Below, piece by piece: positions 14,494 to 57,116 of a stretch of 64,000 nt of DNA. Under the pieces are notes generated by a model. That model was given only the letters and a program-made list of their open reading frames with translations. It ran no database searches and was not told the DNA's origin. Each line of letters opens with the position of its first letter. The stretch's first letter is position 1. The position numbers were made by a program, and so were the translations under genes. This DNA comes from Candidatus Hodarchaeota archaeon (GTDB lineage Archaea > Asgardarchaeota > Lokiarchaeia > Sigyniarchaeales > SOKP01): the NCBI GenBank assembly GCA_048886305.1, contig JBHLKV010000001.1, positions 13,039 to 77,038 of the forward strand. Direction: 5' to 3'.

Positions 14494-14494
14494 T

Positions 14495-15802
14495 TTGTTT
14501 GTATCATCAACTTATAAAAAAAAATTAATCAAACAAGAAGATAATCCAGATCTGGTGATATTTAATGCTAACGAACTTATTACAATGAATACTAAATATG
14601 GTGCTCCAAGAATTGGTAAAAATATGTCTGAGTTATCAATCATTGATAATGGGGCAATAGGAATAAAAGATGACAGAATTATGTATGTGGGTTCTACTGA
14701 TGAATTAATATCTAAATTTTCTCTTAATGAAGTTAAAATAACAATTGATGCTACAAATAAATTAGTTACACCTGGATTTGTAGATCCTCATACACATTTG
14801 ATTTTTGATGGTTCAAGAGAAAATGAATTACAAATGAAACTTGAAGGAAAGTCTTACCTTGAAATACTCCAATCGGGAGGTGGCATATTAAGAACTGTTC
14901 GCGAAACTAGAAAAGCTTCTTTAGAAAAACTTGTAGAAAATGGTAAAAAAATATTAGATAAGATGATGAATTACGGCACAACGACAGTTGAAGCTAAGTC
15001 TGGTTATGGTTTGAATACTGAAAGTGAATTAAAGATATTAAAAGCATTAAAGATATTAAATGAAGAGCATCCTTTAGATATTATATCAACGTTTTTAGGT
15101 GCTCATGCAATCCCCTTAGAATATAAAGATAAACCTGAAGATTATGTTGAGTTAATCATTTCAGATATGATACCTAAAATAGTTAAAGAAGGTCTTGCTG
15201 AATTTTGTGATGTTTTTTGTGAAAAGGGAATCTTTTCAATTGAACAATCAAGAAAAATTTTAAAAACTGCATTGAGATATGGCTTAAAACCTCAAATTCA
15301 TATTGATGAAATTGTTGACACTAATGGTGCCTTACTTGCCGCAGAATTAAGAGCAATTCAAACAGGTCATTTGTTAAAATCAAATGATAGAGGATTAAAA
15401 GCAATGGCAGAAGCAGGAGTTATTGCTACACTTTTGCCAGGAACTCCTTTTTGTTTAATGTTAAAAGAATATGCGCCAGCAAGAAAAATGATTGATTTTG
15501 AGATACCTATAGCTCTTGCGACTGATCTTAACCCAAATTGCTGGACTGAATCAATGCAAATGATTATAACATTAGCCTGTTATAATATGAAACTATCCCC
15601 TGCAGAAGCTCTGACAGCAGCTACAATTAATAGTGCTTGTGCAATTGATAGACAAGATGAAATAGGAAGTCTTGAAGTTGGGAAAAAAGCCGATATAGTA
15701 ATTTTTGATGTTCCAAATTATAATTTTTTACCCTATCAATTTGGGGTAAATTTAGTATCTAAAGTAATTAAAAATGGCAAAATTTTAATTAATAATGATT
15801 AA
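14495..15802 (+). CDS. hutI: imidazolonepropionase
   Basis: Amidohydrolase metal motif PGFVDPHTHL, then GGGI, KSGYGL and ATDLNP. The TTG start at 14495 is preceded by AAAGGAG 8 nt upstream and follows the hutH stop by 1 nt. Confidence 0.9.
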   Translation: MFVSSTYKKKLIKQEDNPDLVIFNANELITMNTKYGAPRIGKNMSELSIIDNGAIGIKDDRIMYVGSTDELISKFSLNEVKITIDATNKLVTPGFVDPHTHLIFDGSRENELQMKLEGKSYLEILQSGGGILRTVRETRKASLEKLVENGKKILDKMMNYGTTTVEAKSGYGLNTESELKILKALKILNEEHPLDIISTFLGAHAIPLEYKDKPEDYVELIISDMIPKIVKEGLAEFCDVFCEKGIFSIEQSRKILKTALRYGLKPQIHIDEIVDTNGALLAAELRAIQTGHLLKSNDRGLKAMAEAGVIATLLPGTPFCLMLKEYAPARKMIDFEIPIALATDLNPNCWTESMQMIITLACYNMKLSPAEALTAATINSACAIDRQDEIGSLEVGKKADIVIFDVPNYNFLPYQFGVNLVSKVIKNGKILINND

Positions 15803-15808
15803 CTACGT

Positions 15809-16726
15809 TTAAAAATCAAAATAATGCTCTAATAGATGTTTTTCTTCTAACTTTTCTGGTTTTTCTAATTGTAGGTAATATTCTAAAGAGTTTAGTACAG
15901 CATCTAATGGTAAGACACCAATTAATTCAGATCCTATTATAGGAACTCCATATCTAGCAGCTTCGATTCTTACAAGTTCAATTTGTCTATAAAGTGGTGT
16001 TTTTCTATAATTAATATTACTAATACCTATTTGTACATAATCTTTTTCTGCTAATTCAGTACCCATTGCTTTAATATTAACTAGTCCGCCTGAACGTAAA
16101 TGAATTGCTTTTGCCACTTTTTTAGCAACTTTAATATCATTTGTTCCAAGATTAATATTAAAGCTAATCAATGGATATCTAGCACCTGTTATTAATGCTC
16201 CAGCTGTTGGATGTAATTCAGAAGGACCAAAATCAGGTTTACGATCTGGATTAACTTTAATCGCTTCTTTTAATCCTTCATATTCACCAATTCGAATATT
16301 ATCGATGTTTTTTCTTTCCATTTTACGAGCTGATTCTTCATAAAGATACACTGGGAGGCCTTCTTTTGCCATAGCTTCACCAAATTTTATTGAGAGCTCA
16401 ATACATTCTTCAATTGACACATTTTGGGCAGGAACAAAAGGTACAACATCAATAGCTCCAATTCGAGGATGTTGTCCTTTATGGGTGTTCATATCAATTA
16501 GAGTAATAGCTTTTTTTGCAGCAGCAATATTTGCTTCTAGAACAGCTTCTGGTGTTCCAACAAAGGTAATGACGGCTCTATTGTAATCAGAATCATATTG
16601 AATATCCACAATTCGAGTGTTCTGTGTATTTTTAATTTCGGAAACAATTTGCTCGATTTTTTTTCCATCTGTCCCTTCACTATAATTAGGAACAGATTCC
16701 ACAATTTTCTTTTTGCTTTTTTCCAT
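15809..16726 (-). CDS. ftcD: glutamate formimidoyltransferase (FTCD formiminotransferase domain only)
   Basis: 305 aa. The N-terminal VPNYSEG corresponds to the family ECVPNFSEGR motif. The two-subdomain FT_N/FT_C length fits. It is convergent with hutI, with a 6-nt gap. Confidence 0.9.
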   Translation of the reverse strand: MEKSKKKIVESVPNYSEGTDGKKIEQIVSEIKNTQNTRIVDIQYDSDYNRAVITFVGTPEAVLEANIAAAKKAITLIDMNTHKGQHPRIGAIDVVPFVPAQNVSIEECIELSIKFGEAMAKEGLPVYLYEESARKMERKNIDNIRIGEYEGLKEAIKVNPDRKPDFGPSELHPTAGALITGARYPLISFNINLGTNDIKVAKKVAKAIHLRSGGLVNIKAMGTELAEKDYVQIGISNINYRKTPLYRQIELVRIEAARYGVPIIGSELIGVLPLDAVLNSLEYYLQLEKPEKLEEKHLLEHYFDF

Positions 16727-24029: not shown

Positions 24030-27000
24030 TTATATTAATTTTTCATATTCCTTAGATTTATTCGATAATCTTTTAACTTCCTTTGTCATTTCAGTTACGC
24101 CTAATTTAAAGATTTCAGATGCTACTCTTGAAGCCATTCGAAACTTTTGTGCAGCTTCAGAGTAACGCCCTTCTTTAGCTGCTAATTTAGCTCCATTCTC
24201 TAATTCCTTTAGTTTTGCTTTATAATCTATTATTTTTGTCGTGCGGATAAGATCTTCGAGTTCTTCAAATTCTTTTTGTATTTCCCAATTTGTAGCAATC
24301 ATTAAAGCATTCTGGCAAATCGTAATAGCTTTATCGTAATCATTCTCTTTTCTCGCTAAAGCAGCATTCTTCTTTAGGTTTTTAATCTCCTTTTTCGCTG
24401 ATTTTAGATCTTCTATTTTTACTACTCCCACTTTCATGGGTGCAGATACAATTTCCTGGCTTTCTACTATACTGGCAAAGTAAGCTTCTCTTTCAGCAGG
24501 ACCCATTTGAGCTAGATCATTTACAAGTTTTTGTTTTTCTTCGGGGCTTAAGCTAACTAATCCCGCGACTTTTTGGCTAATAAGATTCAATTCTTGTTGA
24601 GAAATTGGCTGGGCTTCAATGGTGGAGATCTCTATTGGCATTAAGATTTTTTTATCTCTTAATTCCTTAATACCACTAAAAATTTCCGCTGTATCTTTCT
24701 TAGTTCTTTCTGTAGCTTCTTTCAAAAGAGTTGCTATAAAGAAGAAATCTCTTTCTGCCTCTTCGCAGCAACTATGAGCAACTTTTAATACATCTTTTGA
24801 ATGGGGTGTTTTAAGAGTTTTTGCCTCTGAAAATTCATATGTAATCTTATGAGGTAAAATTATTGAAGTATTGAAGACATCATCAATAATTACCCCTGAA
24901 TTTCTGAAAACATTTAATTGCCCTCTCCACCTAGGAAGTTCATTTTCATAAATTTTCTCAAAAGCTGCAATAAATTCAGTTAGATGTTTACGTAAAATAA
25001 TTGAAGCTTTCTTACTTAACACTAAGGCAACCCTACTATATTCGCCATCAGCTAATAAGAGCATCTTATCTCCATATGTTATTTCATTTAATGCTTTCTG
25101 AGCTACCATCTCTTTTCCAAATGAAGAGACCGCAGAAATGAAACCACTGATTAATTCAGGATCAATTGCCTCAGATCCAAAAGATTTAAAGAAAACACAT
25201 GTTCCTGTTCCCTTATACAAAACTAAAATGTGTTCTAGATTAATAGCGTCATCAAAAATAGTCCTAACTTCAGTTAAAGCCCTTTTCTTTTCACGTTTTT
25301 TAGGAACAACTAATCCTCGATAAGCAGCAATCGAACCAACCCCTACTGCTGCTGCGGCTCCAACAATTATGAAATAAGGTATTAAATCCTCAAAAGCGAA
25401 CGGAGCCGGACCTTCTGCTCTTTCGGTTAATGTTAGATTAAATGAAAATGATTGAATTTCATAATTAACCAATTCAATTGATATCGTAATTGTATAGTTA
25501 CCTTCTTCAGTAATAGATGATAAATCTATATTTCCTCTATAAAAAGTTGCAGCATACCTAATAAAGATGAGAGTTCCACTAGATGGTGTACCAGATGTTT
25601 TGTTGTATGTGACTGTTATTATCGCTGCTGAACCAGAATCTAAAACTAAATTATTACCATAATCAAGGTCAGTAATATTAAATTGAACATCAATATCACT
25701 TCCAAGAGTAGCGTTATAATAGTTATACAAACCTATTGGTAATAGCTCTATACCATCTACTTCAATAGTTTCTAGATTTGATTGAGAACTATTCCCTAAT
25801 AACCTAAATGTTACCGGACTTGTGTTAAAGTTGTATATTGGATATTTAGAAATGTTCAAAGTAATCGTATATTCTCCAGAATCTAATCCACTTGTACTTA
25901 CATTAAGAATATAATAATCCTCAGCTGGTACAGGTATTAATGTCCAATTATGATCTCCCCTTAACCATAAGGAACCGACATCATCATATACTTTAACATC
26001 ATCAGTTGTGAGATCAGGAATAGGTAAACCATCTAATGTGCTATTGAAATATAAATATATTGTTTGATTGAGCCCCGTTAATCTTTTAATTGTTGGAACA
26101 GAGGAAATAATTTCGATAACAGTATTTAACAATATCACTTCTATAGATAGAATAACTTTTTGAGGTTCTTTACCTAATTTTGATATAGTAAAATTACACA
26201 GATATGGATTTACTCTTGAAGGAACATTGTTTACCTCTATATTAACTGTATAGGTACCATTTCCATAAGTATCACTATAAAAAATAAATCCGGAATCTAA
26301 TTCTATATCTGAGAAAGAAGCTCCAATAATAGGATTATTACCGAAATCAGTATCTGTATAATTAAACGTGTATGTAACGTTTACACCATTAGTAGATTGA
26401 AAACTCTTTGTTATATCTTCAATAAAAGTATGATTCACTAAATTAAATATAAACTGAAGTGAATCATTGTTATAATATTGTAATAATGTTCTTATATCTA
26501 CGGTATTTGGACCATAGTTAGCAGAACTTGGATCTATTGTAATATTATAAAAACCAGAAGTACCATTATTAACAGATGTAGAATCCCATGTTCCACCATT
26601 AATACTATATTCAATAGTCCCATCAACAGGTATATTTTGACCTGTATCATTTATATAAACAGTTATATTGAAATCAGGAGATGAAGGATAATAATATTCA
26701 TTGTCTGGTGGTGATATATGAGACAAATCAGTTTCACCATAAATGGTAAGTAATTCTTCTCTAAATCCAGCAGCAGTTTCATTATTCCAAAAAACTTGTA
26801 CACGAAAAACACCATAACTAACGACTGTACTACTTATATCCCAATCAATAAAATTGATATCTGAATTAGCGCTAAGTGTGGTATTATCAGTTGTAAAATT
26901 TAAAAAATCATTAATCAATATTGGACTATAAATACTTAGATTTACTCCATTGGTTCCAGGAATAACATCTTCAAAAAATTCAGCTACAAATGAGACTGTA

Positions 27001-28421
27001 TCCGAATAATTTGCTTCAGTTATTGGATTTAATCCTTTATTCATACCAATTGATTGAAGTAGATTATCGGATTGTCCTGTAATATACCAATTGGTTCCAT
27101 TATCAGCATTAGATATTTTAAGATCTTTAAATCTGTTAATTATCGGACCTATCGTAATATCTGAAGTTTTATCGATAGATCCATTATATGCATTAAAATT
27201 TCTCCATGTGTCAGGTACAGTAAAATTTATATAAAAGTTGCTTAATCTTGAATCAAAATCATCAATCTCCTCAGTTGGGAGAGCCATCCAATTAACATCT
27301 GCAGCATTTTTAGTTAATGTAAAATTTGAAGCTGCTGTTATATCACTTTTTGTGTAATTTGCTTGTACTTCACTGATTTGGCAGGTAACATCCCACCATT
27401 CTGCTGAAATTTCAAAGTTTAAACTATTGGTAACTACTTCAAATGATGCATCTAAATCCCAAGTCCCCTGATTAGCAAAACTATTATAGTTATCTACAGC
27501 ACTACCATTGATCTTTAAACTTACTTGATTAGGCGTTGGAGTATTATTAAGAGGAAGTAAATGGAGGATAAGTGAAGGATCAATACCAGCCACAGGTTGC
27601 CATCCACCATCATCTATCCATACTTTTGAATCATCGCTTGAACCGTCATTTTCATCATGAAATTGTACATTAGCTAATGAAGAGGAGGTAGTTTGAGTCA
27701 TCCAGATATAAAATAAGTTATTTTCTGTTTGTGAGACATCCAATTGAATATCCAAATCTGTAAAATTATACCATATTCTATTTGTATCATTATATATTGT
27801 AACACTATTTTGTATTGTATCTAAATAGGTGTCTGGTCCATAATCGCTAAAAACACCATTCCATGATGCACTCCATAGCTCCAAGTTTATTGATCCATCA
27901 AAATCATCAAGTAAATCTGATTCTGAGAAGCACATAGTGAAATTATCTAAAATACCATCACCAGGTACCTGAAAAGAAACTGCATGGTCATAATTACGAA
28001 TTGAGGTTGATAAAGTTGTTCCTGTTTCAATTACAAGTGTTTTATTTGGTGCAACTATATCCATAACCTCGATGCTTATATTTTTCGCAAAAAAATTATT
28101 GTTACCTGGAGAAGCTATGTTAAATGTATTATTATTTGAATCTGAAGCATTCAAATTCCAGTTAAATGATTCATTAAAATAAGATTGATGTAATGTAACA
28201 TTAACATTTTCACCAGTATTGCTTAAATCATTTGTATAACCTGCAGCTTTAAGATTATCATCAAAAAAATCGAATTCATCATAATTAAATTTTGTCTCTT
28301 CCTCAATTGCTCTATTTAGTAAATTTGTTTGTGAAACATTCAAGCTTACAAACATTGTACCAAGAAATAAAAATAGAATGCTGATACTTTTTAGTTTTCT
28401 TTTGTTTTTCGATTTAAACAT
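24030..28421 (-). CDS. giant type-I surface glycoprotein-like protein: signal/anchor, ~1,000-aa beta-rich ectodomain, single TM, ~430-aa cytosolic tail (longin/roadblock-like module plus helical TPR/MIT-like end)
   Basis: N-terminal KSKNKRKLKSISILFLFLGTMFV signal. I count more than 40 N-x-S/T sequons by eye in the ectodomain, with recurring G.YT(I/V).I strands. The TM helix is IPYFIIVGAAAAVGVGSIAAY followed by KKREKKR (nt ~25320-25390). The ATG at 28421 is preferred over the TTG at 28430. Confidence 0.85.
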   Translation of the reverse strand: MFKSKNKRKLKSISILFLFLGTMFVSLNVSQTNLLNRAIEEETKFNYDEFDFFDDNLKAAGYTNDLSNTGENVNVTLHQSYFNESFNWNLNASDSNNNTFNIASPGNNNFFAKNISIEVMDIVAPNKTLVIETGTTLSTSIRNYDHAVSFQVPGDGILDNFTMCFSESDLLDDFDGSINLELWSASWNGVFSDYGPDTYLDTIQNSVTIYNDTNRIWYNFTDLDIQLDVSQTENNLFYIWMTQTTSSSLANVQFHDENDGSSDDSKVWIDDGGWQPVAGIDPSLILHLLPLNNTPTPNQVSLKINGSAVDNYNSFANQGTWDLDASFEVVTNSLNFEISAEWWDVTCQISEVQANYTKSDITAASNFTLTKNAADVNWMALPTEEIDDFDSRLSNFYINFTVPDTWRNFNAYNGSIDKTSDITIGPIINRFKDLKISNADNGTNWYITGQSDNLLQSIGMNKGLNPITEANYSDTVSFVAEFFEDVIPGTNGVNLSIYSPILINDFLNFTTDNTTLSANSDINFIDWDISSTVVSYGVFRVQVFWNNETAAGFREELLTIYGETDLSHISPPDNEYYYPSSPDFNITVYINDTGQNIPVDGTIEYSINGGTWDSTSVNNGTSGFYNITIDPSSANYGPNTVDIRTLLQYYNNDSLQFIFNLVNHTFIEDITKSFQSTNGVNVTYTFNYTDTDFGNNPIIGASFSDIELDSGFIFYSDTYGNGTYTVNIEVNNVPSRVNPYLCNFTISKLGKEPQKVILSIEVILLNTVIEIISSVPTIKRLTGLNQTIYLYFNSTLDGLPIPDLTTDDVKVYDDVGSLWLRGDHNWTLIPVPAEDYYILNVSTSGLDSGEYTITLNISKYPIYNFNTSPVTFRLLGNSSQSNLETIEVDGIELLPIGLYNYYNATLGSDIDVQFNITDLDYGNNLVLDSGSAAIITVTYNKTSGTPSSGTLIFIRYAATFYRGNIDLSSITEEGNYTITISIELVNYEIQSFSFNLTLTERAEGPAPFAFEDLIPYFIIVGAAAAVGVGSIAAYRGLVVPKKREKKRALTEVRTIFDDAINLEHILVLYKGTGTCVFFKSFGSEAIDPELISGFISAVSSFGKEMVAQKALNEITYGDKMLLLADGEYSRVALVLSKKASIILRKHLTEFIAAFEKIYENELPRWRGQLNVFRNSGVIIDDVFNTSIILPHKITYEFSEAKTLKTPHSKDVLKVAHSCCEEAERDFFFIATLLKEATERTKKDTAEIFSGIKELRDKKILMPIEISTIEAQPISQQELNLISQKVAGLVSLSPEEKQKLVNDLAQMGPAEREAYFASIVESQEIVSAPMKVGVVKIEDLKSAKKEIKNLKKNAALARKENDYDKAITICQNALMIATNWEIQKEFEELEDLIRTTKIIDYKAKLKELENGAKLAAKEGRYSEAAQKFRMASRVASEIFKLGVTEMTKEVKRLSNKSKEYEKLI

Positions 28422-28671
28422 TGTAATCAATTAATAATTTCTATTTGGATTTAAATACTATTAGTATATTATTTAAAATCTTTTATTTTAAGATTAAATA
28501 GTTTTTTTATTAATTATCTAATTAATCAAATCATAACAATTTCTTAATTTATACTTTTTCAAAACAAATCAGATCATTTCATCTTTAAAGAAGAAAATAG
28601 TAATTTATGAATAACATAAAAATCGAAATAATGTAAATTTTTTAAAGAATGATAAAGATTGAATTATTACA

Positions 28672-29434: not shown

Positions 29435-30607
29435 ATGAATACACTAATAAAACAGAAATCAAAATTAAAATCAAAAATTTTTTTCCATGAAAAGATAGTT
29501 ATGACAAGTGAAAAAGAAAGAAATATTTCGATTTTATTAAAGAATCTCATAAATTCTCATCAAGATTTAGAAATAGCTTTTCTTTATTCGAGAGAAGGAC
29601 TTTTGATTTCTAAGTATGGAAGGTTGGAAGATCAAGACGAATCTGAGACAGAAAATGAACTAGAAGTGATCTATGGAGCAATTACTACCATAGCAGAGAA
29701 TTTATTAAATAGGATTAGTAATGAATATAAGATAGGACATTTTGGTAGTGGATCTTTTGAAACTCCTGACCATAGAATAATTTTTCTCGAAGCTGGTTCT
29801 GAAGCTATATTAATTCTATTTTGTAATTATGAAATAAACTTAAATAAGCTTTTTCCAGTTGCTTACCTAGTAGCTGAAAAAATAGCACAATTAATTGAAG
29901 AAAGTTTTGATTTCAAGTATAATTCTTTAGATATTCCAGAATTAAGTTTCCATGACAATTTTTCCTTAAAATTGGATCAATATCGTTCTGCAGGTGAAAT
30001 AAAGCCTGAAATGGAAAATATTTCAATGAAATATCATATAAAGAAATCTAAAGACGTCAAAAATGCATTTAAATTGATAATATTAGGTTCTGCTGCTGTT
30101 GGAAAAACTACATTAGTGAGAAGCTTTTTGAAGAAGGAACAAACCCAAGATTATCGAGCAACGATTGGAATTGCCATAAGCTCTAAAAAGTTTTATATTC
30201 AAGGTTTTAAGGATGAAAAAATCAATTTTCTTATCTACGATTTAGCAGGTCAAGAATTTTTCAAACGAATTCGGAAGGAATATTATAAAGGAGCGAATTG
30301 TGCTTTTGTTGTTTATGATATAACACGAAGAGAGACTTTTGATGAAGGGATAGATTATTGGTTTAAAGATGCTAGAGAGGAATTAGGAAATGTACCATTT
30401 GTATTAATAGGTAATAAGGTTGACTTAGAAGACCAAAGACAAGTGTCAAAAGAAGAAGGACTGAAAAAGGCAGCAGAACTGAAAAGTTTCTTTATCGAAA
30501 CTTCGGCATTACACAATATTAATGTTCAAGATACTTTTAAACTCATCGGAATTGGCTTATTTTTCAAATCTGAAGATGAATTAACAAATAAGGATACATT
30601 ATTTTAA
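29435..30607 (+). CDS. Roadblock/LC7 (MglB-like) domain fused to a C-terminal Rab/Ras-like small GTPase
   Basis: Residues ~28-155 are roadblock-like (ISILLKNL..DLEIAFLYSREGLLIS...HRIIFLEAGSEAILILFC..). Residues ~211-375 carry G1 GSAAVGKT, switch I TIGIA, G3 DLAGQE, G4 NKVD and G5 ETSAL. The ATG at 29501 is an alternative start. Confidence 0.9.
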   Translation: MNTLIKQKSKLKSKIFFHEKIVMTSEKERNISILLKNLINSHQDLEIAFLYSREGLLISKYGRLEDQDESETENELEVIYGAITTIAENLLNRISNEYKIGHFGSGSFETPDHRIIFLEAGSEAILILFCNYEINLNKLFPVAYLVAEKIAQLIEESFDFKYNSLDIPELSFHDNFSLKLDQYRSAGEIKPEMENISMKYHIKKSKDVKNAFKLIILGSAAVGKTTLVRSFLKKEQTQDYRATIGIAISSKKFYIQGFKDEKINFLIYDLAGQEFFKRIRKEYYKGANCAFVVYDITRRETFDEGIDYWFKDAREELGNVPFVLIGNKVDLEDQRQVSKEEGLKKAAELKSFFIETSALHNINVQDTFKLIGIGLFFKSEDELTNKDTLF

Positions 30608-35615: not shown

Positions 35616-35811
35616 AAAAATTTTGTATTTTTAACTTTTTTTATTAATTTTTATTACTAAATATGCAAAGGATTTTATGCCTTCAATAGCTTGATCGATA
35701 ATGTAATTACATCTTTAATTCTTTCTCGGCGACCCAACTATTCGAGTTATTTTCATATTAATATTAAATTTTAATATTAACTTAAGTAATTTTTATACCC
35801 ATAAGAATACA

Positions 35812-36588
35812 ATGTTAATTTCAAAAATAAATAAAATGAAACTGATTAAAGATAAAGTGGAATATCAAAAAGTTAAGAAAAGTTTATTAGACGATTTAAA
35901 GTACTATAATCAGTTTATTACAAAAAAAGTTGAGGTTAATGATTTAAATTCCGCATTAAATAAAGCCAAATCAGCTATTACATTAATAGAAGAATATCAG
36001 GACGATTTCAATTTAACTAATGAATTATTGGAATTTAAAAAACTAATTCAAAAAATTGATTTAGAAGTAAGAGAAAGAAGGAGATTCTATTTAAGGAAAT
36101 ATAATAATCTTTTAAAAGAGAAGTTAAATGAATCCAATTTGGAAAGTTTCATGAAATTATTAGCTATGTTAAAGAATGAAATAGATAAGAACTTAAACAA
36201 GTTTAATCTTGAAGATATCCATAATAATATTAATAAATACTTTGTTTATATAAAACGGGTATACGAGATCCTAAGTTGTTGCGATATTTTAAATTATTTT
36301 GATGTTTCTGAAAAAATCCTTAACTTTGTTAATGATTTAAAATCTGAAAACTTTCCAAATTTAAAGTATTTTGTTTCTTCGATTTATAAAGATTTGATCA
36401 CTAAGAGAATGTTAGAATATTCTAAAGAGTATAACATAATTTCAATCTCTACTCTCTCTAAGAGAATGGCAGTTAAACAGGAATTTTTGATCAGACTTAT
36501 TGATTCAATGAAAAAACAACCTAAAAAACCAATTATAGACTATAATCCTTCTGTACAAGTAGTAATTTTCAAAAAACCAAGCATATAA
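35812..36588 (+). CDS. helical-repeat protein with C-terminal PCI-like winged helix (tentative)
   Basis: 258 aa, all-helical for the first ~190 aa. The tail YNIISISTLSKRMAVKQEFLIRLIDSMKKQPKKPIIDYNPSVQVVIF fits the PCI WH pattern Y..IS...L......S.......L..MI......G.ID.....V.F. Confidence 0.5.
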   Translation: MLISKINKMKLIKDKVEYQKVKKSLLDDLKYYNQFITKKVEVNDLNSALNKAKSAITLIEEYQDDFNLTNELLEFKKLIQKIDLEVRERRRFYLRKYNNLLKEKLNESNLESFMKLLAMLKNEIDKNLNKFNLEDIHNNINKYFVYIKRVYEILSCCDILNYFDVSEKILNFVNDLKSENFPNLKYFVSSIYKDLITKRMLEYSKEYNIISISTLSKRMAVKQEFLIRLIDSMKKQPKKPIIDYNPSVQVVIFKKPSI

Positions 36589-36593
36589 AACTC

Positions 36594-37517
36594 TTATAAG
36601 GCTCGAAAAAAATCTGGTCTTAATACTTCAGTATGAGTTAATCCATAATTAATTACTTCTAAAATCTTTTGTTTCTCTCGATCTAAAATCCCTCGTAAAG
36701 GAAGATAATTACTTGCATGATTCGAGCGAAAAACACAGTTTGCATTTTTATTTGAGAATTCAATATGTTTAATGAAAGTTTTCAATTCCTGTAATATTTC
36801 GATTTGATTCATTTCCAAAAATTCTCCATTGATCTTTCTTCTAAATATCTCTGTTCCAGGGGGTACAATAAGTGTCAAAAAAGCAACATACCAAATTCTG
36901 TTGTCTGCAGGGCAAATTTTATTAACTAAATCAGCAGATTCTATTGCATGTTTTTCAGAAATATCTGGATTACTTCCCCCTCCAAGGCCATTTATAAAGG
37001 TTGCAGAAAGTGTAATATCTGCGTCCATTAACTTTTTTGATGCTTCAATGTAATCCTGTTTTGTTGCATTCTTATTTACATTTTTTAGTAAAATATCATA
37101 ACCTGATTCAAACCCTACATAAGCAATCTTTAATCCTGCTTCTGATAAGGCACTCAATTGTTCATCCGATTTCTTCAGAATATCTTTAGCGTGAGCATAA
37201 ACTCCAACCCTTTCTAAATTCGGAAATATTTTCATAGCATAATTAGTGAGTTTTAAAAGTTTTTCGGCAGGTGTAACCATTGCATTTCCGTCTAAAAAGA
37301 AAACTTTGCGAATATGAGAACTATATTGTTTTTTAGCTACGTTTAAATCCCTTTTAACATCCTCTAATTCTCTAATTTTAAATTGCTTTTGAAGATTTGA
37401 CATACAAAAATCACATTTAAAAGAGCAACCTTCAGTCAATTGGATCAATAAAGAAGCATGCTCTGATGGAGGACGGAATACGGGTTTACAGTAGTATATC
37501 TTATCTCTATTTGACAT
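36594..37517 (-). CDS. radical SAM protein (canonical CxxxCxxC)
   Basis: IQLTEGCSFKCDFCMS cluster motif and TIM-barrel-length body. It is a paralogue of 46370-47278 (shared RPP.E..S.LI..T.GCS leader). Confidence 0.85.
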   Translation of the reverse strand: MSNRDKIYYCKPVFRPPSEHASLLIQLTEGCSFKCDFCMSNLQKQFKIRELEDVKRDLNVAKKQYSSHIRKVFFLDGNAMVTPAEKLLKLTNYAMKIFPNLERVGVYAHAKDILKKSDEQLSALSEAGLKIAYVGFESGYDILLKNVNKNATKQDYIEASKKLMDADITLSATFINGLGGGSNPDISEKHAIESADLVNKICPADNRIWYVAFLTLIVPPGTEIFRRKINGEFLEMNQIEILQELKTFIKHIEFSNKNANCVFRSNHASNYLPLRGILDREKQKILEVINYGLTHTEVLRPDFFRAL

Positions 37518-37593
37518 ATACAATTTAGAAAAGGATAATATAATTTTATTGGTTTTTAAATGATAGAATATAATTTATTTTAAGCTTCTTTCC

Positions 37594-38274
37594 TTATTCC
37601 TCTTCTTTATCAGCATCTTCAGGTCTATTAGGACAAGATGTTAAATGGCGCCCTAGTCTAACAAATTCCTTCCCACAATAAGGACATTTTTGTTTCTCTT
37701 TTGGAACAACTTCACCTGACTCTTCTGTAGTAGGTTTTTTCTTTCTTTTCTTTTTTGCTCTTGCTGGTATAATATCTTCAATACTAGCATCATCAGGAGC
37801 AAATTCGCAAGATTGAATGTGTGAAGCCAAATCTTCGAATAATTCACCACAAAACGGGCATTCAATCTCCCCAAATTCTTCGGAATCTTCTATATCTGCT
37901 TTCCCAGCTTTTCTCTTCTCGAATTTTAAAGGAATTTCTTCATCTTCTTCCTCGAATTCATCAATAGATAAATCTATTTCCTCATCTGCTTTTATTTCAG
38001 CTATCTCAAATTCTTCTAATTCAATTTTTTTATCTTTAATTTTCTTTTCAGCCACTTTTCTGCTATCATCATATATTTCTGATATCTTTTTATTTGTTTG
38101 AGAATATAAAGCACATACTTGGCAAACATATGCTCTTGTTCCGAGCACTAGATCCCTTTCTGGACAGAAACATAAAGGTTGTAAGCTATTAGAAATGTCA
38201 CCTTTAGGAGTGAGGTATTTACAAGCTAATTTCCTTGAATATTTAATTTTTTGTTTTCTACGAGGTATTTTCAT
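37594..38274 (-). CDS. acidic multi-zinc-finger protein (N-terminal Cys cluster plus two C2HC fingers)
   Basis: The N-terminal Cys cluster is CFCPE..x15..CQVC. Two fingers follow, CPFCGELFEDLASHIQSC and CPYCGKEFVRLGRHLTSC (C-x2-C-x9-H-x3-C), separated by Glu/Asp-rich and Lys-rich tracts. The ATG at 38274 is preferred. Confidence 0.7.
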   Translation of the reverse strand: MKIPRRKQKIKYSRKLACKYLTPKGDISNSLQPLCFCPERDLVLGTRAYVCQVCALYSQTNKKISEIYDDSRKVAEKKIKDKKIELEEFEIAEIKADEEIDLSIDEFEEEDEEIPLKFEKRKAGKADIEDSEEFGEIECPFCGELFEDLASHIQSCEFAPDDASIEDIIPARAKKKRKKKPTTEESGEVVPKEKQKCPYCGKEFVRLGRHLTSCPNRPEDADKEEE

Positions 38275-38409
38275 CACCAAAAGAAGTATATAAAATAATT
38301 AATCTTAAAATTTAATTTTTTTGTTTAGAAAATCTGTATTAAGAGAAAAAAATGCATGAACTTTATTGAAAATAATTGAACTTTAGAAAATAATTATATT
38401 GAGATAAGG

Positions 38410-39909
38410 TTAAAAATTGAACTTTATTGAATTTAGATCATGTTTAATTTTATTCTGGATATCTTTATTCTCCAGTTTTGGTAATAATTCTTCGATTAAA
38501 TCTTTTAAATCTAGAGATTTTTGGGAGAGTATTTCTGGTTTACTCCAATTGGATTTTCTTAGTGGGTGATTTCTTATTATTGCTTTATTATAATTTTCAA
38601 TAGCCTCTCTATAAAATAAGCAAGCACTCTCCAAATTATTTAATCTAGAATGATAAATTGTACCTATTTTATTAAAACAAATACCTGCTCCTGCAAAATC
38701 ATTTATTTTCTCGAATTCTATAGCCGCATCTCTTATCGTATTTAAAGCTTCTTTTAAGACATTGTTTTCTCCTGTTTTAAGAAGAATATATCCAATAATA
38801 TACTTAGACTCTCCTAAGAAAAAAGAATTTTTTTCCTTTTTAGCGGTTTTGTTTAAATCATTTGCAAATTCCTCAGCAAAAACCAAATGATTATTGGATA
38901 TACATTTTTTTGATAAATCTCTTAATAACTCTAAAACTTTTTCAATGTTATGGAGTTCTTTATACTTTTCTATTCCCTGTCTGTATTTCTCAATACCTGT
39001 AAAAGCATCTTTTTTCTTAAAAGCCTGGTTTCCTTCAAAAATTAGTTGTTCGGCACTCTCTTTTATTTGTAATTCTTTTTGTTTTTTGTCGAAATCTCCA
39101 TAAAAGAAAGTATCAACATCAAAAATCATATCCTCCGACATAGGGATTTCTGTCAATAAATCATTGTTTGGTCTAATTTTTTTATTCTCATTAAACTTGT
39201 TTTTATCTTGAAATTTAGAATTGACTTCTTCTCCATAGGCTGATTGTAAAGGTTTCCCTGCTGAAGCTAATGCTGACAATTCAGATAATACATTAGCAAA
39301 AAAATATTTGCTTAATCCATCAACAACATAATCCACTTTGTGGTAGTTATTATCATACTCTGGATCGTTAACATCCATATTTACGTCGGTAAGTCGATAA
39401 ATTTCAAATCCAGTATCATATTTAGTAATTGTATGTTCTGAACCTTCAACTTTTTCCTTTTTTTTCTTTCCTAATAGAGTATGATCAAAAACTAAACCAC
39501 AAAAATCATCATTTTTTGCCTGAAATCCTAATTGATTAATAAGATCTATATATGAAAAAAAGAGTCCTAATCCGGGATGAGAGTGAAACCATCCAATCAT
39601 ATAGAATCCTTTACTATTCTTATCCAATTTTTCTTGGATTTCTTCTATAAAACCATAATGTCTTTCATCTAATTGAACATCTGTTGCATGCCCAAATGTG
39701 AGTGCTTCAGCATCTTCTATATATACAAAATCATCATCAGAATAACCTATTAAAATTCCATATATTTCTTTCCATTCCTCAGCGGGAATAGATTTATTAG
39801 CATATCTGCTAGCATATAAGATAATTGTTTTATAAGCTTCTGCTCTTACAACAACAGGCTTTTTAATTTTCTCTTTTGATTCCTCATTTGAGTTTTGTTC
39901 TTTTGACAT
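38410..39909 (-). CDS. JAB1/MPN/Mov34 (JAMM, MPN+) metalloprotease fused to C-terminal TPR-like repeats
   Basis: The JAMM motif is complete: the upstream Glu (WKEIYGILIGY) and GWFHSHPGLGLFFSYID (HxH-x7-S-xx-D). GW(F/Y)HSHPG and the following insert resemble the Rpn11/CSN5/AMSH style. Residues ~290-499 are helical TPR-like. Confidence 0.9.
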   Translation of the reverse strand: MSKEQNSNEESKEKIKKPVVVRAEAYKTIILYASRYANKSIPAEEWKEIYGILIGYSDDDFVYIEDAEALTFGHATDVQLDERHYGFIEEIQEKLDKNSKGFYMIGWFHSHPGLGLFFSYIDLINQLGFQAKNDDFCGLVFDHTLLGKKKKEKVEGSEHTITKYDTGFEIYRLTDVNMDVNDPEYDNNYHKVDYVVDGLSKYFFANVLSELSALASAGKPLQSAYGEEVNSKFQDKNKFNENKKIRPNNDLLTEIPMSEDMIFDVDTFFYGDFDKKQKELQIKESAEQLIFEGNQAFKKKDAFTGIEKYRQGIEKYKELHNIEKVLELLRDLSKKCISNNHLVFAEEFANDLNKTAKKEKNSFFLGESKYIIGYILLKTGENNVLKEALNTIRDAAIEFEKINDFAGAGICFNKIGTIYHSRLNNLESACLFYREAIENYNKAIIRNHPLRKSNWSKPEILSQKSLDLKDLIEELLPKLENKDIQNKIKHDLNSIKFNF

Positions 39910-40042
39910 GCTTTTTTCTTTCTGAATATAATTTTGTATTAAATTGCTATTCTAGAATTATAATAGGGCTATTATTAATTAAAATTATTTATATTTGAGA
40001 TGTAATAAAAATAAATTTGAAAAATTAAGTTTTCTTTTAAGA

Positions 40043-40597
40043 TTATTTTAAAACTAAATCCATAAATCTTTCTTTGATTTCTTCTGGTAGGAGTGGAATA
40101 TTTTCTACTTGTTCGCTTCCAGGCATCGTTTTAATTAACACTAGATGACAACCCCCTCCTATCTCTCTTAATATCGAAGAAATTTCATGTCTTTCTTCAA
40201 TCACAAATATAGATTCAAATCCTGCGCCTTGAGCTATTATTTCTAATTTTGTTTTTCGGCGTGTATAAGACATCTGGTCTCCTGTAGAGCCATAAGAACC
40301 ATTATCTATAATTATTAAAGTCAAATTTCTTGGAGCATTATTTGCGATTGTACTTAAACTACCTAAGTTCATAAGTATTGAACCATCGCCATCAATACAC
40401 CATACTCTTCTTTTAGATTGGGATATCGCTAACCCAAATGCAATTGAAGAAGATAGTCCCATGGAACCCATCATGTAGAAATTCTCTAATCTATCTTTGA
40501 TATTATATAGCTCTCTTGACGGATCTCCAAGATTACATACTACTAACTCGTCTGTTAATATTTCAGAAATTTCTTTTAATGCCTCATATCTTCTCAT
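40043..40597 (-). CDS. comE: thiamine-diphosphate-dependent decarboxylase, beta subunit (sulfopyruvate/phosphonopyruvate decarboxylase ComE-like)
   Basis: 184 aa TPP-binding C-terminal module with GSMGLSS and IDGDGS..MNLGSL..IIIDNGSYGSTG. It starts 1 nt after the alpha-subunit stop. Confidence 0.75.
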   Translation of the reverse strand: MRRYEALKEISEILTDELVVCNLGDPSRELYNIKDRLENFYMMGSMGLSSSIAFGLAISQSKRRVWCIDGDGSILMNLGSLSTIANNAPRNLTLIIIDNGSYGSTGDQMSYTRRKTKLEIIAQGAGFESIFVIEERHEISSILREIGGGCHLVLIKTMPGSEQVENIPLLPEEIKERFMDLVLK

Positions 40598-40598
40598 T

Positions 40599-41093
40599 TT
40601 AGCTTACCCACAAAGTTCTTTTAAGAATAATAGCTACTGGTTTTTTAGTTTTCTTAGCTTTATCAACTACTTTTGTAATCTCCTTAATATTTTCAGAAGA
40701 ACTTAAAATAAGTGTCTCAATTGATATAAGTTTTAAAAGATCAATTGTGACTTGACCCATTGGCATCTGTGCAATAATTTTTTCTCCTTCTGCTCCTCGA
40801 TGACTCATAATAAAAATAACTGGTATCTTATATAATTCGAGCAGAGATTTTATAGCATTTATAGAATTACCTAATCCAGAATTTTGCATTAAAATAGCTG
40901 GAATCTTACCCCCGAGGTAAGCTCCTGCTGCAATTCCTACACCTTCCTCTTCTCGAGTCACTTGAATATGTTCAATCTCATTTTTTTCATCAATAAGTTT
41001 TAATAAATTTTTAAGCATGATGCAAGGTACCGACAACAAGAGGTTTATTCCAGTACTTTTAATTGTTTCATATAATTTTAGATCTATACTCAT
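40599..41093 (-). CDS. comD: thiamine-diphosphate-dependent decarboxylase, alpha subunit (ComD-like)
   Basis: 164 aa pyrimidine-binding module. VTREEEGVGIAAGAYLGG and LMQNSGLGNSINA match M. jannaschii ComD (from memory). Confidence 0.75.
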   Translation of the reverse strand: MSIDLKLYETIKSTGINLLLSVPCIMLKNLLKLIDEKNEIEHIQVTREEEGVGIAAGAYLGGKIPAILMQNSGLGNSINAIKSLLELYKIPVIFIMSHRGAEGEKIIAQMPMGQVTIDLLKLISIETLILSSSENIKEITKVVDKAKKTKKPVAIILKRTLWVS

Positions 41094-43741: not shown

Positions 43742-44248
43742 TTATAACTCAATAATCTCTGCTGCCATTTTATTTGTATCCACAATAGCAAATGTAGCCT
43801 TTCCTGTTAGATATCCACAGAGTTCACCTGGATTCACCACTAATACTCCATTTTCATATTTTTTATTCATTAAAGCATGAGTATGACCAAATAAAATAAT
43901 ATCAAACTTCCCTGAGGTAGCGATTGCATCAACAGTTTCTTGATTAGGCATATGTGATGCGAAAATTTTTTTTCCATCAAATTCTGAAATTAACTCCATT
44001 CCTACAAGATCACAGATCTGTCCTAAATTTTGATTTAAAAAAATCCTATCCCCATCATTGTTTCCATATACACCAAAAAACCTTTCTTTTATATTTTCAT
44101 TTAAACCATCAAACCATCTAACAACAAACGCAGAAATGTAATCTCCGCAATGGATTACTGCATCCACATCTTTTTTATTTATTTTGGATACAGCTTTTAT
44201 TATATTTTTCTTATGATCATGTGAATCTGATATAACTGCTATTCGCAT
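43742..44248 (-). CDS. MJ0936/YfcE-type metallophosphoesterase (phosphodiesterase)
   Basis: From the ATG at 44248, MRIAVISDSHDH, HCGD, GNNDGD, HMP and GHTH..NPGE are collinear with M. jannaschii MJ0936 (from memory). Confidence 0.85.
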   Translation of the reverse strand: MRIAVISDSHDHKKNIIKAVSKINKKDVDAVIHCGDYISAFVVRWFDGLNENIKERFFGVYGNNDGDRIFLNQNLGQICDLVGMELISEFDGKKIFASHMPNQETVDAIATSGKFDIILFGHTHALMNKKYENGVLVVNPGELCGYLTGKATFAIVDTNKMAAEIIEL

Positions 44249-44378
44249 TTTTTCCAACTCATAATATCCTAAAATAGTTAATAATGAGAATTTATAAAAA
44301 GATTCTTAACATAAAAAGATATATTATTTAGTTGTATAAATTAATAAATGTAATAAATGAGTATGATTTGATTTTCGT

Positions 44379-45452
44379 ATGATTGAGGATTTCTTTAAAA
44401 GAGAAAAAACAGTTATAGATGAAGAGTTAGAAGATTATTTTGCTAAATTGAATAGAGATGAAAAAGATATACTTCTAAAAGATTTTACTTCCCAACTCGA
44501 GGAATTTATATTAAATCCAAAAGCTAAAAGAATTCATCCTATTTTATTAATTGCTTCCTTTACAGGAATAATAAATCCAATGTATTTAGAAGATCAAATA
44601 AATCAAATTCGAAAAGTATCATTAGCTGTAGAATTATTACATAGTGGATATTTAATCCATGATGATCTCATAGATAATGATAATATAAGAAGAGGGAAAC
44701 CTACTTTTCATATTCAATTGAAAAATGAGATAAATAAAATATTTAAAGGAATAAATGTCACGAATAAAGATAAATTGATAGAAAACTTTTCACGTGATAT
44801 TTCAATAATGGGAGGCCTTCAAGGCTATCTGCTAGGATTAAATATTTTAAAATCTTCAAAATTCCCTGATAATCTAAAATTATTAGCTATAAACGAATAT
44901 ACAATGGCTATGGATTATTTAATGAAAGGACAAATAATTGAAGAATATATGGATTACCATAAAATAACCATGTCCTTAGAACAGTATTTAAATATCGCTG
45001 AGCTACAACGAGCTAGCCTCTTTGAGATTTCAACCAAGATTGGAGCAATTTTAGCAAAGGGAAATTTACTTTATCAAATTAAACCCTTATCAGAAGCAAT
45101 GGCTAGAATTGGTCAAGCATACGCTATTCGAGATGATATTCTTGATTTAAAAGATGATATCAAAAGAAAGAAAAAGAAAATTATTTATATTTTAGCTATC
45201 CAAAATAGTGACGAGGTCCAATCAAAAACATTAAATGAAATATTTAATAAAGAGAGTTTATCTAACAACGATGTTAAATTAGTAGAAGAAATCTTTAGTG
45301 AAACAAACGCAATTATTATAGCAGAACATTTCTCGAAAAACTTGATTTCTCAGGCTAAAAATTTCTTAAAAGATATTTATCCTGATTTAAATAAAGAACA
45401 AAAAATCTTTTTTAATGAATTCTCAGATTATATTTATATGAGAGAATTTTAA
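44379..45452 (+). CDS. trans-polyprenyl diphosphate synthase (GGPP synthase-like)
   Basis: First Asp-rich motif LIHDDLIDNDNIRRG and second Asp-rich motif AIRDDILD. Confidence 0.9.
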   Translation: MIEDFFKREKTVIDEELEDYFAKLNRDEKDILLKDFTSQLEEFILNPKAKRIHPILLIASFTGIINPMYLEDQINQIRKVSLAVELLHSGYLIHDDLIDNDNIRRGKPTFHIQLKNEINKIFKGINVTNKDKLIENFSRDISIMGGLQGYLLGLNILKSSKFPDNLKLLAINEYTMAMDYLMKGQIIEEYMDYHKITMSLEQYLNIAELQRASLFEISTKIGAILAKGNLLYQIKPLSEAMARIGQAYAIRDDILDLKDDIKRKKKKIIYILAIQNSDEVQSKTLNEIFNKESLSNNDVKLVEEIFSETNAIIIAEHFSKNLISQAKNFLKDIYPDLNKEQKIFFNEFSDYIYMREF

Positions 45453-45469: not shown

Positions 45470-46066
45470 TTATAATACAATATATGGTTTATTTTGTTTT
45501 TTAAACATCAAATTATTTAACTCTTTAAAGACTTTTAATACATTATAATTTTCTAAGGCAGAGGTTTTGTAAAAGCCATCTAAATGTTTCTCGTCAACAT
45601 ATTCAAGAATTATATCATCAGGGATGATTGCGGTATTAGCTGTTTTGTCTAGTAAATCACTTTTGCTTCCTACTAAAATAATGGGAATTTGAGAATCTAC
45701 AGCATACTTAATTAAATTATCATACCAAAAGTCTAATTGCTCAAAAGATGAGTAATTAATTAAATCAAATACTAATAGAGCTCCATTAGCTCCTTCTATA
45801 AACTTAGGTATTAAAGGTTTAAACCTTTCCTGACCTCCAAAATCAAAAATAGAATTTAACACAAAATTTTCTTTTGAGTCATTTAAATGGTCTTTCTTAT
45901 GAATTCCCAAGTAAATCGAGTGAAAATTTATTCCTATTGTGAGTGATGTGTCTATATTAAATGAGTTAAAACAAATTCTGTTAAATAAGCAGGTTTTTCC
46001 AACACTAGCAGGACCACAAATCGTAACTTTATAGTTATATAATGCTTCTTTATCGCTAGATACCAT
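45470..46066 (-). CDS. stand-alone Rab/Ras-like small GTPase
   Basis: G1 GPASVGKT, Rab-like switch I TIGINF, G3 DFGGQERF, G4 variant GSKSD and G5 TSAL. There is no C-terminal Cys lipidation motif. Confidence 0.9.
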   Translation of the reverse strand: MVSSDKEALYNYKVTICGPASVGKTCLFNRICFNSFNIDTSLTIGINFHSIYLGIHKKDHLNDSKENFVLNSIFDFGGQERFKPLIPKFIEGANGALLVFDLINYSSFEQLDFWYDNLIKYAVDSQIPIILVGSKSDLLDKTANTAIIPDDIILEYVDEKHLDGFYKTSALENYNVLKVFKELNNLMFKKQNKPYIVL

Positions 46067-46369: not shown

Positions 46370-47278
46370 ATGATTACAAAAATACCCCCTGAACAAATTG
46401 TTATTAGACCTCCAGTAGAAGCATATTCAGTTTTAATACCTGTAACTGGTGGATGTTCATGGAATAAATGCCGTTTCTGTGGAACTTATAAAGGCATTTA
46501 TGGAGTTTCTCAGGATTATGCTATAAGAAATATAGACGATGTAAAAAAAGATATAGATAAATTTGCTGAGAGAAATTATCATGGTTTTCCTGTATTTTTA
46601 GCTGGAGGAAATCCTACATCCGCACCAACGGAGTATCTAATTGAAATAGTTAAGTATGTAAGAGTTAGGCTTAGAAATGTACAACGGATTAGCTGTTATG
46701 CTAAAGCACTAGATATTTTAAGAAAATCAGAAGAGGAATTAAAGAAGCTTGCAGAAGCAGGATTAGATATTGTGTATATGGGATTAGAGAGCGGAAGTAG
46801 CAAAATCTTAAGGATAATGAAAAAAGGGACTAATGCAGAGTCAATAATTAAGGCTGGGAAAAAGATTTTAAGTGCTGGCATTAAACTTAGCCTATATATT
46901 ATTCTTGGTTTAGGAAGCCATAAATATTCCGAAGAACATGTAAAAGAAACCGCAAGTGTATTGACTGAAATAAATCCAACGATTTTTAGATTTAGAACTC
47001 TTAATGTAATGCCTGGTACTCCTCTTTGGGATGAATGGAAAGCAGGTGAATTTGAATTATTGTCTCCAGTAGAAAATCTAAAAGAAGAAAGAGATATCAT
47101 AGCAAATTTAGGCGATAATGTGACTTCCCAGGTTTTTAATGACCATGTTAGTAATTATTGTGATCTTGAATCAAAAAACATTAAGCAGGATAAGGATATG
47201 TTTTTGAGATATTTGGATTCTTTAATTAATGATCCCCGAATTCAATATCTACCGCGAAGAAACCTAATTCGCATGTAA
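46370..47278 (+). CDS. radical SAM protein, paralogue with a Cx4Cx2C cluster spacing
   Basis: The cluster motif VTGGCSWNKCRFCGTY has four residues between the first two Cys. The rest aligns by eye with 36594-37517 (GLESGS vs GFESGY, etc.). Confidence 0.8.
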   Translation: MITKIPPEQIVIRPPVEAYSVLIPVTGGCSWNKCRFCGTYKGIYGVSQDYAIRNIDDVKKDIDKFAERNYHGFPVFLAGGNPTSAPTEYLIEIVKYVRVRLRNVQRISCYAKALDILRKSEEELKKLAEAGLDIVYMGLESGSSKILRIMKKGTNAESIIKAGKKILSAGIKLSLYIILGLGSHKYSEEHVKETASVLTEINPTIFRFRTLNVMPGTPLWDEWKAGEFELLSPVENLKEERDIIANLGDNVTSQVFNDHVSNYCDLESKNIKQDKDMFLRYLDSLINDPRIQYLPRRNLIRM

Positions 47279-57097: not shown

Positions 57098-57116
57098 ATG
57101 CAAAAATCTTAAATGA

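Follow-up and report, generated by a model that had tools for sequence, protein, structure and literature searches.

Does the gene for an Rpn11-like protease in an Asgard archaeon form a functional module with its neighbours, or does it simply stand beside them? The question is raised by three consecutive genes in a 64,000-nucleotide stretch of a Candidatus Hodarchaeota archaeon genome (assembly GCA_048886305.1, contig JBHLKV010000001.1, positions 13,039 to 77,038; hereafter the window, numbered from its first letter). They encode a JAMM/MPN+ protease with a tetratricopeptide repeat (TPR) tail, here called JAMM-TPR, a zinc-finger protein (ZnF) and a radical SAM enzyme (rSAM). A first-pass annotation had placed all three on the minus strand, separated by 135 and 76 bp, and had proposed a module for deconjugation or recognition of a ubiquitin-like protein (Ubl) with the fingers as its readers. 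The list of open reading frames (ORFs) of the window, which has a G+C content of about 29%, agrees with this layout. JAMM-TPR occupies 38410..39909 (minus strand; 499 aa, ATG start), as defined by its ORF, its Pfam JAB match and its homologues. The ZnF ORF runs over 37594..38280 from a TTG (228 aa) or from an ATG at 38274 (226 aa), and the rSAM ORF, which matches PF04055, over 36594..37523 from a TTG (309 aa) or from an ATG at 37517 (307 aa), both on the minus strand. With the ATG starts the spacers are the 135 bp (JAMM-ZnF) and 76 bp (ZnF-rSAM) noted before.

Gene order in close relatives

Each of the three proteins has hundreds of full-length homologues (55-93% identity), and the nearest relatives of the window are metagenome-assembled genomes (MAGs) of Promethearchaeota/Lokiarchaeia with protein identities of 92-93%. 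The window proteins were mapped onto a sample of 101 loci; two loci reached from the ZnF side (L102 and L103) were excluded from the neighbourhood counts. We refer to loci with a JAMM-TPR identity of at least 55% as the close group and to those at about 38-49% as deep lineages. Genome and metagenome scans gave mostly close relatives, the deep lineages being reached solely by single lookups. Since some loci are near-duplicates, fewer independent observations underlie the counts than the figures suggest.

In all 79 close loci with 900 bp or more of sequence downstream of JAMM-TPR, ZnF follows it on the same strand within 500 bp. Two lookups from the ZnF side, each begun with a ZnF homologue, both showed JAMM upstream of ZnF and rSAM downstream of it. 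The flanks of the close group turn over: the comDE, CoA-transferase and orf258 genes are variably present, and L103 carries two alcohol-dehydrogenase genes upstream; in L014 and L103 the trio is intact despite completely different flanks. The JAMM-ZnF pairing is thus real, and it is undescribed.

Full-length rSAM follows ZnF in 50 of the 60 close loci with at least 1900 bp downstream. Remnants of 47-81 aa are left in three others (L003, L033 and L046), and in the last seven rSAM is absent, with the next gene directly after ZnF. Because rSAM is decayed or absent in ten of 60 loci, it is facultative, and since about one locus in six has lost it, the JAMM-ZnF pair does not depend on it. This bears out the caution of the first-pass annotation that the link to rSAM could be positional.

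Gene clustering in deep lineages

JAMM-TPR, ZnF and rSAM lie within 5 kb of one another in three of the four testable deep lineages (L015, L016 and L021), in rearranged orders and orientations. In L021, JAMM-TPR is followed by a 314-aa ZnF orthologue and then by a convergent rSAM (52% identity). L015 has rSAM and then a 366-aa ZnF orthologue on the opposite strand, 3 kb from JAMM-TPR. In L016, ZnF is split into two ORFs 1.3 kb downstream, with rSAM 3.8 kb away on the opposite strand. The sequences of L017 and L019 end too early to judge ZnF or rSAM, and L020 (26% identity), which has no partners and is probably a paralogue, was left out of the counts. Flank genes of the close group were undetected in the deep lineages, save for a phosphodiesterase and, in L016, orf162. 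The cluster therefore outlasts rearrangement after the other flanks are gone, which is a stronger sign of functional linkage than synteny in the close group, if not proof. The conservation of the trio, on which the first-pass annotation had staked its reading, holds throughout the close group for JAMM-ZnF, in part for rSAM, and in three of four deep lineages for the clustering of all three.

The phosphodiesterase is of the YfcE family, with its catalytic motifs intact (43742..44257, minus strand; TIGR00040 at 103.5 bits, cut-off 56.25). It directly adjoins JAMM-TPR in all five of L015-L019; in the window it lies about 3.8 kb upstream, with a leucine-rich-repeat gene, the CoA-transferase gene and comDE in between, and across the close group 0.3-6.7 kb upstream. 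It is the protease's most persistent neighbour in the distant lineages, loosely associated.

Several other genes were seen around the deep-lineage proteases. In one deep lineage a conserved protein of 167-236 aa follows JAMM-TPR in the place of ZnF (L015 4018..4728; L017 6935..7438), and a protein of 557-561 aa with a weak Sec23_BS match lies upstream of the phosphodiesterase (L015 143..1816; L017 3072..4757). L016 has an aromatic-lyase gene between ZnF and rSAM. The window itself holds a histidine-utilisation-like set at 10901..16726, comprising urocanase, an aromatic amino-acid (histidine) ammonia-lyase, an amidohydrolase and a formiminotransferase.

The protease domain of JAMM-TPR

Pfam JAB (PF01398) matches residues 19-131 of JAMM-TPR at 47.7 bits (cut-off 22.5), and distant relatives likewise score above this cut-off. 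This match and that of rSAM to Radical_SAM are far too strong to be due to chance. The translation reads E48 ... G106-WFHSHPGLGLFFSYID-122, a motif of the form E ... HxH-x7-S-x2-D. The catalytic motif GWFHSHPGLGLFFSYID (39544..39594, minus strand), with H109, H111, S119, D122 and E48 as the catalytic Glu, aligns with the active site of Caldiarchaeum Rpn11 (CsRpn11). E48, H109, S110, H111, S119 and D122 do not vary among 57 close homologues or among 20 diverse ones, the latter down to 33% identity, so that the MPN+ motif described before as complete is present and conserved.

A sequence search of the PDB placed CsRpn11 first (1.6e-12), followed by CSN5 (2.7e-8), Rpn11 (1e-7) and BRCC36 (3e-5), with AMSH (E = 0.3) and Rpn8 close to noise. 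An AlphaFold2 model built with 57 homologues (mean predicted local distance difference test score, pLDDT, 77.8) gave Rpn11, CSN5, CsRpn11 and BRCC36 as Foldseek matches in the PDB at E about 5e-9 and probability 1.00. In this model the JAMM domain, with an extra beta-rich extension and a helix, spans residues 19-216; the AlphaFold2, Foldseek and PDB sequence results together delimit the domain with its C-terminal extension as residues 17-216 (39262..39861, minus strand). Prok-JAB reached 19.3 bits, below its cut-off of 25, and the Pfam scan gave no match to a RadC profile. The PDB and Foldseek ranking and the Prok-JAB score place the domain with the Rpn11/CSN5 kind, not with prokaryotic, RadC or phage-tail JAB proteins, the last two being alternatives that the first-pass annotation had named. 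We conclude that the product is, as judged from sequence and predicted structure, an MPN+ enzyme of the Rpn11/CSN5 class with an intact active site.

CsRpn11 (Caldiarchaeum subterraneum; PDB 6FJV, 6FNN; PMC6043591) is the best sequence match, with a TM score of up to 0.82 on the target, and shares with JAMM-TPR the E/HxH/S/D active site, an Ins-1 of similar length and the character of a soluble archaeal enzyme. The Ins-1 regions align with a single 3-residue gap, and in CsRpn11 this segment folds onto and positions the ubiquitin tail (PMC6043591). However, CsRpn11, at about 200 aa, consists of JAMM alone and is encoded in an operon with ubiquitin, E1, E2 and RING genes, whereas in JAMM-TPR the protease domain is extended and joined by a disordered linker to a TPR domain, with no ubiquitin-system gene nearby. 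Eukaryotic Rpn11 (PSMD14) and CSN5, the next-best sequence and structure matches, have the same MPN+ fold and catalytic motif; those enzymes act in PCI/MPN complexes with an MPN- partner and have C-terminal helices for the helical bundle, while JAMM-TPR has its TPR domain in place of the bundle helices and no MPN- neighbour. The MPN- gene that would accompany a lid or signalosome orthologue of Rpn11 or CSN5 was not found in the window. AMSH and AMSH-LP also tether a helical protein-docking module, there MIT, to a JAMM isopeptidase, but their domain order is reversed, the sequence match is at E = 0.3 and no ESCRT genes lie in the neighbourhood.

At least 120 full-length homologues of JAMM-TPR with identities of 61-92% were found, all in Promethearchaeota/Lokiarchaeia MAGs. 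An exhaustive search of 1.84 billion representative proteins returned 425 relatives at E <=1e-3 and just 38 at E <=1e-30. Full-length relatives reach down to about 28% identity, and all that are named come from Promethearchaeota or Lokiarchaeia MAGs; among the JAMM-only relatives are proteins of Helarchaeota. JAMM-TPR thus appears so far confined to Lokiarchaeia-type Asgard archaea. Databases label the family "hypothetical protein" or "proteasome lid subunit RPN8/RPN11".

The linker and TPR domain

A predicted disordered linker (residues 217-271, 39097..39261, minus strand; pLDDT <50) joins the protease domain to the tail. It opens with a conserved motif, GKPLQxAYGE (residues 218-227, 39232..39261, minus strand), whose P220, L221, Y225 and E227 are shared by all of 20 homologues with identities as low as 33%; this may be a short docking or regulatory motif.

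The tail of about 200 aa, described earlier as TPR-like, was modelled by AlphaFold2 as ten helices over residues 273-494, mostly at pLDDT >90, within a domain of residues 272-494 (38428..39096, minus strand). In a profile search, the tail matched consensus TPR proteins best (1.5e-17), with Sti1/Hop, alpha-SNAP, NASP, Rap and Pins next. Homologous tails occur in relatives with as little as 21% identity. The relative P0284 exceeds the TPR_12 cut-off (56.4 versus 30.1 bits); single Pfam TPR models remain below cut-off for the window protein itself. Profile and model indicate a genuine TPR domain with no specific affiliation. The idea of a carboxylate clamp of the EEVD-binding type that docks the acidic tail of ZnF was considered: the GN motif is present, but the Lys position four residues ahead of it reads Ile290, and the idea remained speculation.

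The zinc-finger protein

ZnF has 409 homologues, the best 120 listed being 62-93% identical. From the N-terminus, the protein comprises a basic segment, a Cys-containing module, a long helix, acidic tracts and an invariant KFEKRK segment. Then come finger 1, in acidic surroundings, a lysine tract, finger 2 with its invariant RLGRH and, at the end, an acidic tail. The N-terminal module (residues 4-57, 38104..38265, minus strand) is marked by the invariant residues C18, C35/C37, C51 and C54 and is the part kept in the deep orthologues of L015, L016 and L021. Finger 1 (C139-x2-C142-x9-H152-x3-C156; 37807..37860, minus strand) reads CPFC-GELFEDLAS-H-IQS-C, and finger 2 (C197-x2-C200-x9-H210-x3-C214; 37633..37686, minus strand) reads CPYC-GKEFVRLGR-H-LTS-C; both fit the earlier description of two C-x2-C-x9-H-x3-C fingers amid acidic and basic tracts. 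The ligands of both are invariant, and AlphaFold2 predicts beta-beta-alpha fingers at pLDDT about 80 (about 78 for finger 1) and little else. Of these parts, deep orthologues have only the N-terminal module, acidic as well as basic tracts, and a single finger at the C-terminus, finger 2. Since finger 1 is absent from them, it is a later addition, and only the basic C-terminal finger is ancestral.

Pfam, NCBIfam, a PDB profile and Foldseek were all used in attempts to name the family, and none returned a significant match. For the protein itself, all Pfam and NCBIfam scores stayed below their cut-offs, with nothing beyond sub-threshold zinc-ribbon noise, and no Pfam domain was found in any orthologue. 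The PDB profile search yielded no significant match, and the best Foldseek hit had E = 0.58. Precomputed matches to PF28519 (MTNAP1_ZnF) are faint, and the name was not adopted. ZnF represents an Asgard-only zinc-finger family that is as yet uncharacterised.

The fingers had been proposed to read ubiquitin in the manner of UBZ domains. With CCHC ligands and a predicted beta-beta-alpha fold they do resemble the UBZ4/UBZ3 fingers of Rad18, WRNIP1, FAAP20 and Pol eta, and the Rad18 UBZ appears among the Foldseek matches at rank 38 (E = 6.5). Rad18-type UBZ4 fingers have x11 spacing and an Asp directly before the His ligand, whereas the ZnF fingers have x9 spacing and Ser (finger 1) or Arg (finger 2) at that position. 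In FAAP20 the spacing is x15 (ligands C147, C150, H166 and C170), and the UBZ of FAAP20 and Pol eta contacts ubiquitin through D(-4)-A(0)-L(+3) of the finger helix (PMC4267625). The equivalent residues are A150/Q154/E157 in finger 1 and G208/T212/P215 in finger 2, so that the contact motif is absent from both. With no significant profile or fold match besides, UBZ identity was rejected. ZnF is, on sequence and model, no recognisable ubiquitin-binding UBZ protein, and the ubiquitin-reader idea is unsupported; the basic RLGRH of finger 2 would suit an acidic or nucleic-acid ligand at least equally well.

The radical SAM protein

The rSAM protein had been called a canonical CxxxCxxC radical SAM protein, and it matches Pfam Radical_SAM (PF04055) at 61.2 bits (cut-off 29.5), with the cluster-binding motif CSFKCDFC at 37404..37427 (minus strand). 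It reaches no NCBIfam subfamily cut-off (HpnJ, PhpK, BchE, MiaB, SkfB, MnmL and others), the best score being 54.7 versus 577.6 bits, and naming a subfamily was dropped. The best, though weak, matches of the core are to class B (cobalamin-dependent) HpnJ, PhpK and BchE and to GDGT-MAS/Tes (E = 1e-14 to 1e-5), with GDGT-MAS the best PDB match (8e-5). Class B family scores of 53-55 bits lie far under the cut-offs of 578-600, and unlike those enzymes the protein of about 307 aa has no N-terminal cobalamin (B12) domain. It also lacks a SPASM/twitch or peptide-recognition domain, and no protein-modifying subfamily was above cut-off.

A second radical SAM gene, 35% identical to rSAM, lies at 46370..47278 (plus strand). 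Beside it are genes for a Ras/Roc/Arf-like small GTPase (45470..46066, minus strand) and a polyprenyl synthase (44379..45452, plus strand), an arrangement that recurs in L012 and L014.

Conserved upstream motifs

Promoter-like elements precede both JAMM-TPR and ZnF. The element upstream of JAMM-TPR (ATAATTTTAATTAA ... TATTATAATTCTAGAA, 39951..39990, minus strand) is conserved, and a CATAATTTTAATTAAG-type motif was found upstream of JAMM in 72 of 84 loci, regardless of the preceding gene. The ZnF element AAAATTAAATTTTAAG (38304..38319, minus strand) lies 45 nt upstream of the ZnF ATG, is followed by a Shine-Dalgarno-like GGTGAT, and is the sole exact copy in the window. Across loci the JAMM-ZnF spacer always measures about 80-160 bp; within it, a sharply conserved AAAAAATTAAATTTTAAG lies some 42 nt upstream of the ZnF start and is followed by ACTTCTTTTGGTGAT. 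Of 87 loci, 66 have the motif at this position; in 1.72 Mb of sequence it occurs 96 times in all, these 66 included. An A-rich stretch, a TATA-like box and GGTGAT look like an archaeal promoter and leader. A near-copy with two mismatches lies 37 nt upstream of the orf258 start (35760..35775, plus strand), as would be expected if the ZnF motif were a TATA-type promoter of general use in this genome. The ZnF-rSAM spacer is 6-103 bp long and unconserved.

Because JAMM-TPR and ZnF each have a conserved promoter-like motif, the trio is probably not one simple operon; the likely layout is of JAMM-TPR and ZnF-rSAM as separate units. A 13-nt sequence at the JAMM 3' end, TCAATAAAGTTCA, is repeated about 50 nt downstream and followed by a run of seven T (38360..38430, minus strand); this region may be a terminator, or the repeat may have arisen by chance.

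Other genes in the window

Directly upstream of JAMM-TPR are genes for comE/comD-type sulfopyruvate decarboxylase subunits (40043..41093, minus strand), both of which pass NCBIfam equivalog cut-offs; they are found in some related loci and missing from others. On the other side of the trio, orf258 encodes a 258-aa protein (35812..36588, plus strand) and is convergent with rSAM. It has no Pfam match itself, while two homologues score 18-21 bits with PCI (PF01399), under the cut-off of 22, and weak PDB matches to eIF3c and a proteasome PCI subunit recur at E = 0.1-0.5. Not all close loci carry the gene, and none of the deep ones does. The PCI identity of orf258 is suggestive, sub-threshold and unproven; its product may have a PCI-like winged helix, encoded beside an MPN+ gene.

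Elsewhere in the window, an actin-family protein (Pfam Actin, 230 bits) of 509 aa is fused to C-terminal zinc ribbons (61554..63083, plus strand), and the C-terminal half of a 390-aa protein (29435..30607, plus strand) is a Ras/Roc-type GTPase domain by Pfam, with no match for the N-terminal 200 aa. Two very large ORFs, of 1466 aa (24030..28430, minus strand) and 912 aa (54365..57103, minus strand), have no Pfam match at E <=0.001, and the latter has no NCBIfam match either.

Discussion

What, then, might the conserved pair do? Deconjugation or processing of a Ubl, with the TPR domain as docking module and ZnF as conserved partner or client, is the likeliest function, though we hold this reading tentatively. 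JAMM-TPR is a probable Ubl isopeptidase, zinc-dependent and of the Rpn11/CSN5/CsRpn11 class, whose JAMM domain would hold the extended C-terminal tail of the Ubl by means of Ins-1 and would cleave after its terminal glycine. The flexible 55-residue linker would tether the TPR domain, which would dock a partner or substrate. ZnF, the conserved genomic partner, would most likely be a subunit for targeting or regulation, or else a favoured client, expressed from its own promoter, and rSAM a facultative accessory that is probably co-transcribed with ZnF.

Several observations weigh against this reading. No Ub, ThiF/E1 or UQ_con/E2 domain was found among the 58 window ORFs scanned with Pfam, in line with the first-pass annotation, which had seen no ubiquitin-like, E1 or E2 gene in the window. 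No ATG-started ORF of 55-130 aa in the window has GG in its last ten residues, and no Ub, Ubl, E1 or E2 gene occurs in any related locus listed. Since the window has neither ubiquitin-system domain nor GG-ending small ORF, a modifier, if any, would be encoded elsewhere in the genome, as would its conjugation enzymes. Among about 340 relatives there is no fusion of the JAMM domain with CCHC fingers or with the ZnF N-terminal module, and the literature searched holds no paper on the Asgard JAMM-TPR, the ZnF family or the trio. The separate promoter-like elements argue against obligatory co-expression of JAMM-TPR and ZnF. In the deep lineage L018, neither ZnF nor rSAM lies within 8 kb of JAMM-TPR. 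Finally, the surrounding region of 15 kb is also syntenic in the close group, and because so much of it is syntenic, part of the linkage could be inherited gene order.

Inherited synteny alone is accordingly the main rival to a Ubl-processing pair: JAMM-TPR would be a stand-alone housekeeping deubiquitinase, with ZnF and rSAM as functionally unrelated neighbours that perhaps form a unit of their own. The 15-kb synteny, the separate upstream motifs and L018 all fit such a history, as do the loss of rSAM in ten of 60 loci and the unrelated membrane-protein gene orf162, which also stays beside rSAM in L016. However, ZnF accompanies JAMM-TPR in 79 of 79 loci while comDE, CoA-transferase, orf258 and alcohol-dehydrogenase genes come and go, and lineages at 38-49% identity have the trio close together despite inversions and insertions, with the other flank genes of the close group, the phosphodiesterase and the orf162 of L016 excepted, undetected. 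We consider inherited order alone somewhat unlikely. Quite improbable is that the two CCHC fingers serve as UBZ-like readers that deliver Ubl conjugates to the protease; their ligands and modelled fold are of the UBZ4 class, the ZnF gene always lies beside an Rpn11-like protease and the Rad18 UBZ is among the structural matches, but that match is insignificant, as is similarity to any UBZ, the spacing and the D-A-L contacts differ, finger 1 is a recent addition missing from deep orthologues, and the invariant basic RLGRH of finger 2 points at least as readily to other ligands.

ZnF could also be the object of the system, being modified by rSAM or having a metal site matured in its Cys-rich N-terminal module, with the JAMM enzyme processing or regulating it independently of ubiquitin. 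Prokaryotic JAMM enzymes that act on non-ubiquitin substrates are known (Mec+/CysO, Cap3). Four or five cysteines of the N-terminal module are conserved, and ZnF and rSAM remain direct neighbours in L015 and L021, with spacers of only 6-103 bp in the close group. Yet rSAM is dispensable in 17% of loci, where ZnF is still intact, ZnF has no conserved Gly-Gly-type cleavage site, and rSAM has none of the domains or subfamily matches of a protein-modifying enzyme, and this explanation is quite improbable as well. A bolder extension of the Ubl-processing reading, which we regard as improbable, is that JAMM-TPR and ZnF make up an Asgard-specific deubiquitinase module in which the zinc-finger subunit targets or activates the protease, a prokaryotic forerunner or independent analogue of the eukaryotic multi-subunit JAMM complexes. 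By analogy, ZnF would then resemble Sgf11/Sgf73 for Ubp8 in SAGA, or the PCI subunits for Rpn11/CSN5, and orf258 might be an optional scaffold of the JAMM-ZnF module.

In eukaryotes, Rpn11 and CSN5 function solely as parts of large PCI/MPN complexes, and we know of no multi-subunit JAMM complex from archaea. PCI complexes, too, are not known in archaea (PMC6043591). Because a conserved Rpn11/CSN5-like protease here already has a predicted protein-docking TPR domain and a fixed orphan partner gene, the lokiarchaeal JAMM-TPR is a concrete candidate for an intermediate between free archaeal JAMM enzymes and PCI/MPN complexes. Even if the coupling to ZnF should prove merely positional, it would be a good target for finding the Ubl of an Asgard JAMM paralogue that lies outside the ubiquitin operon.

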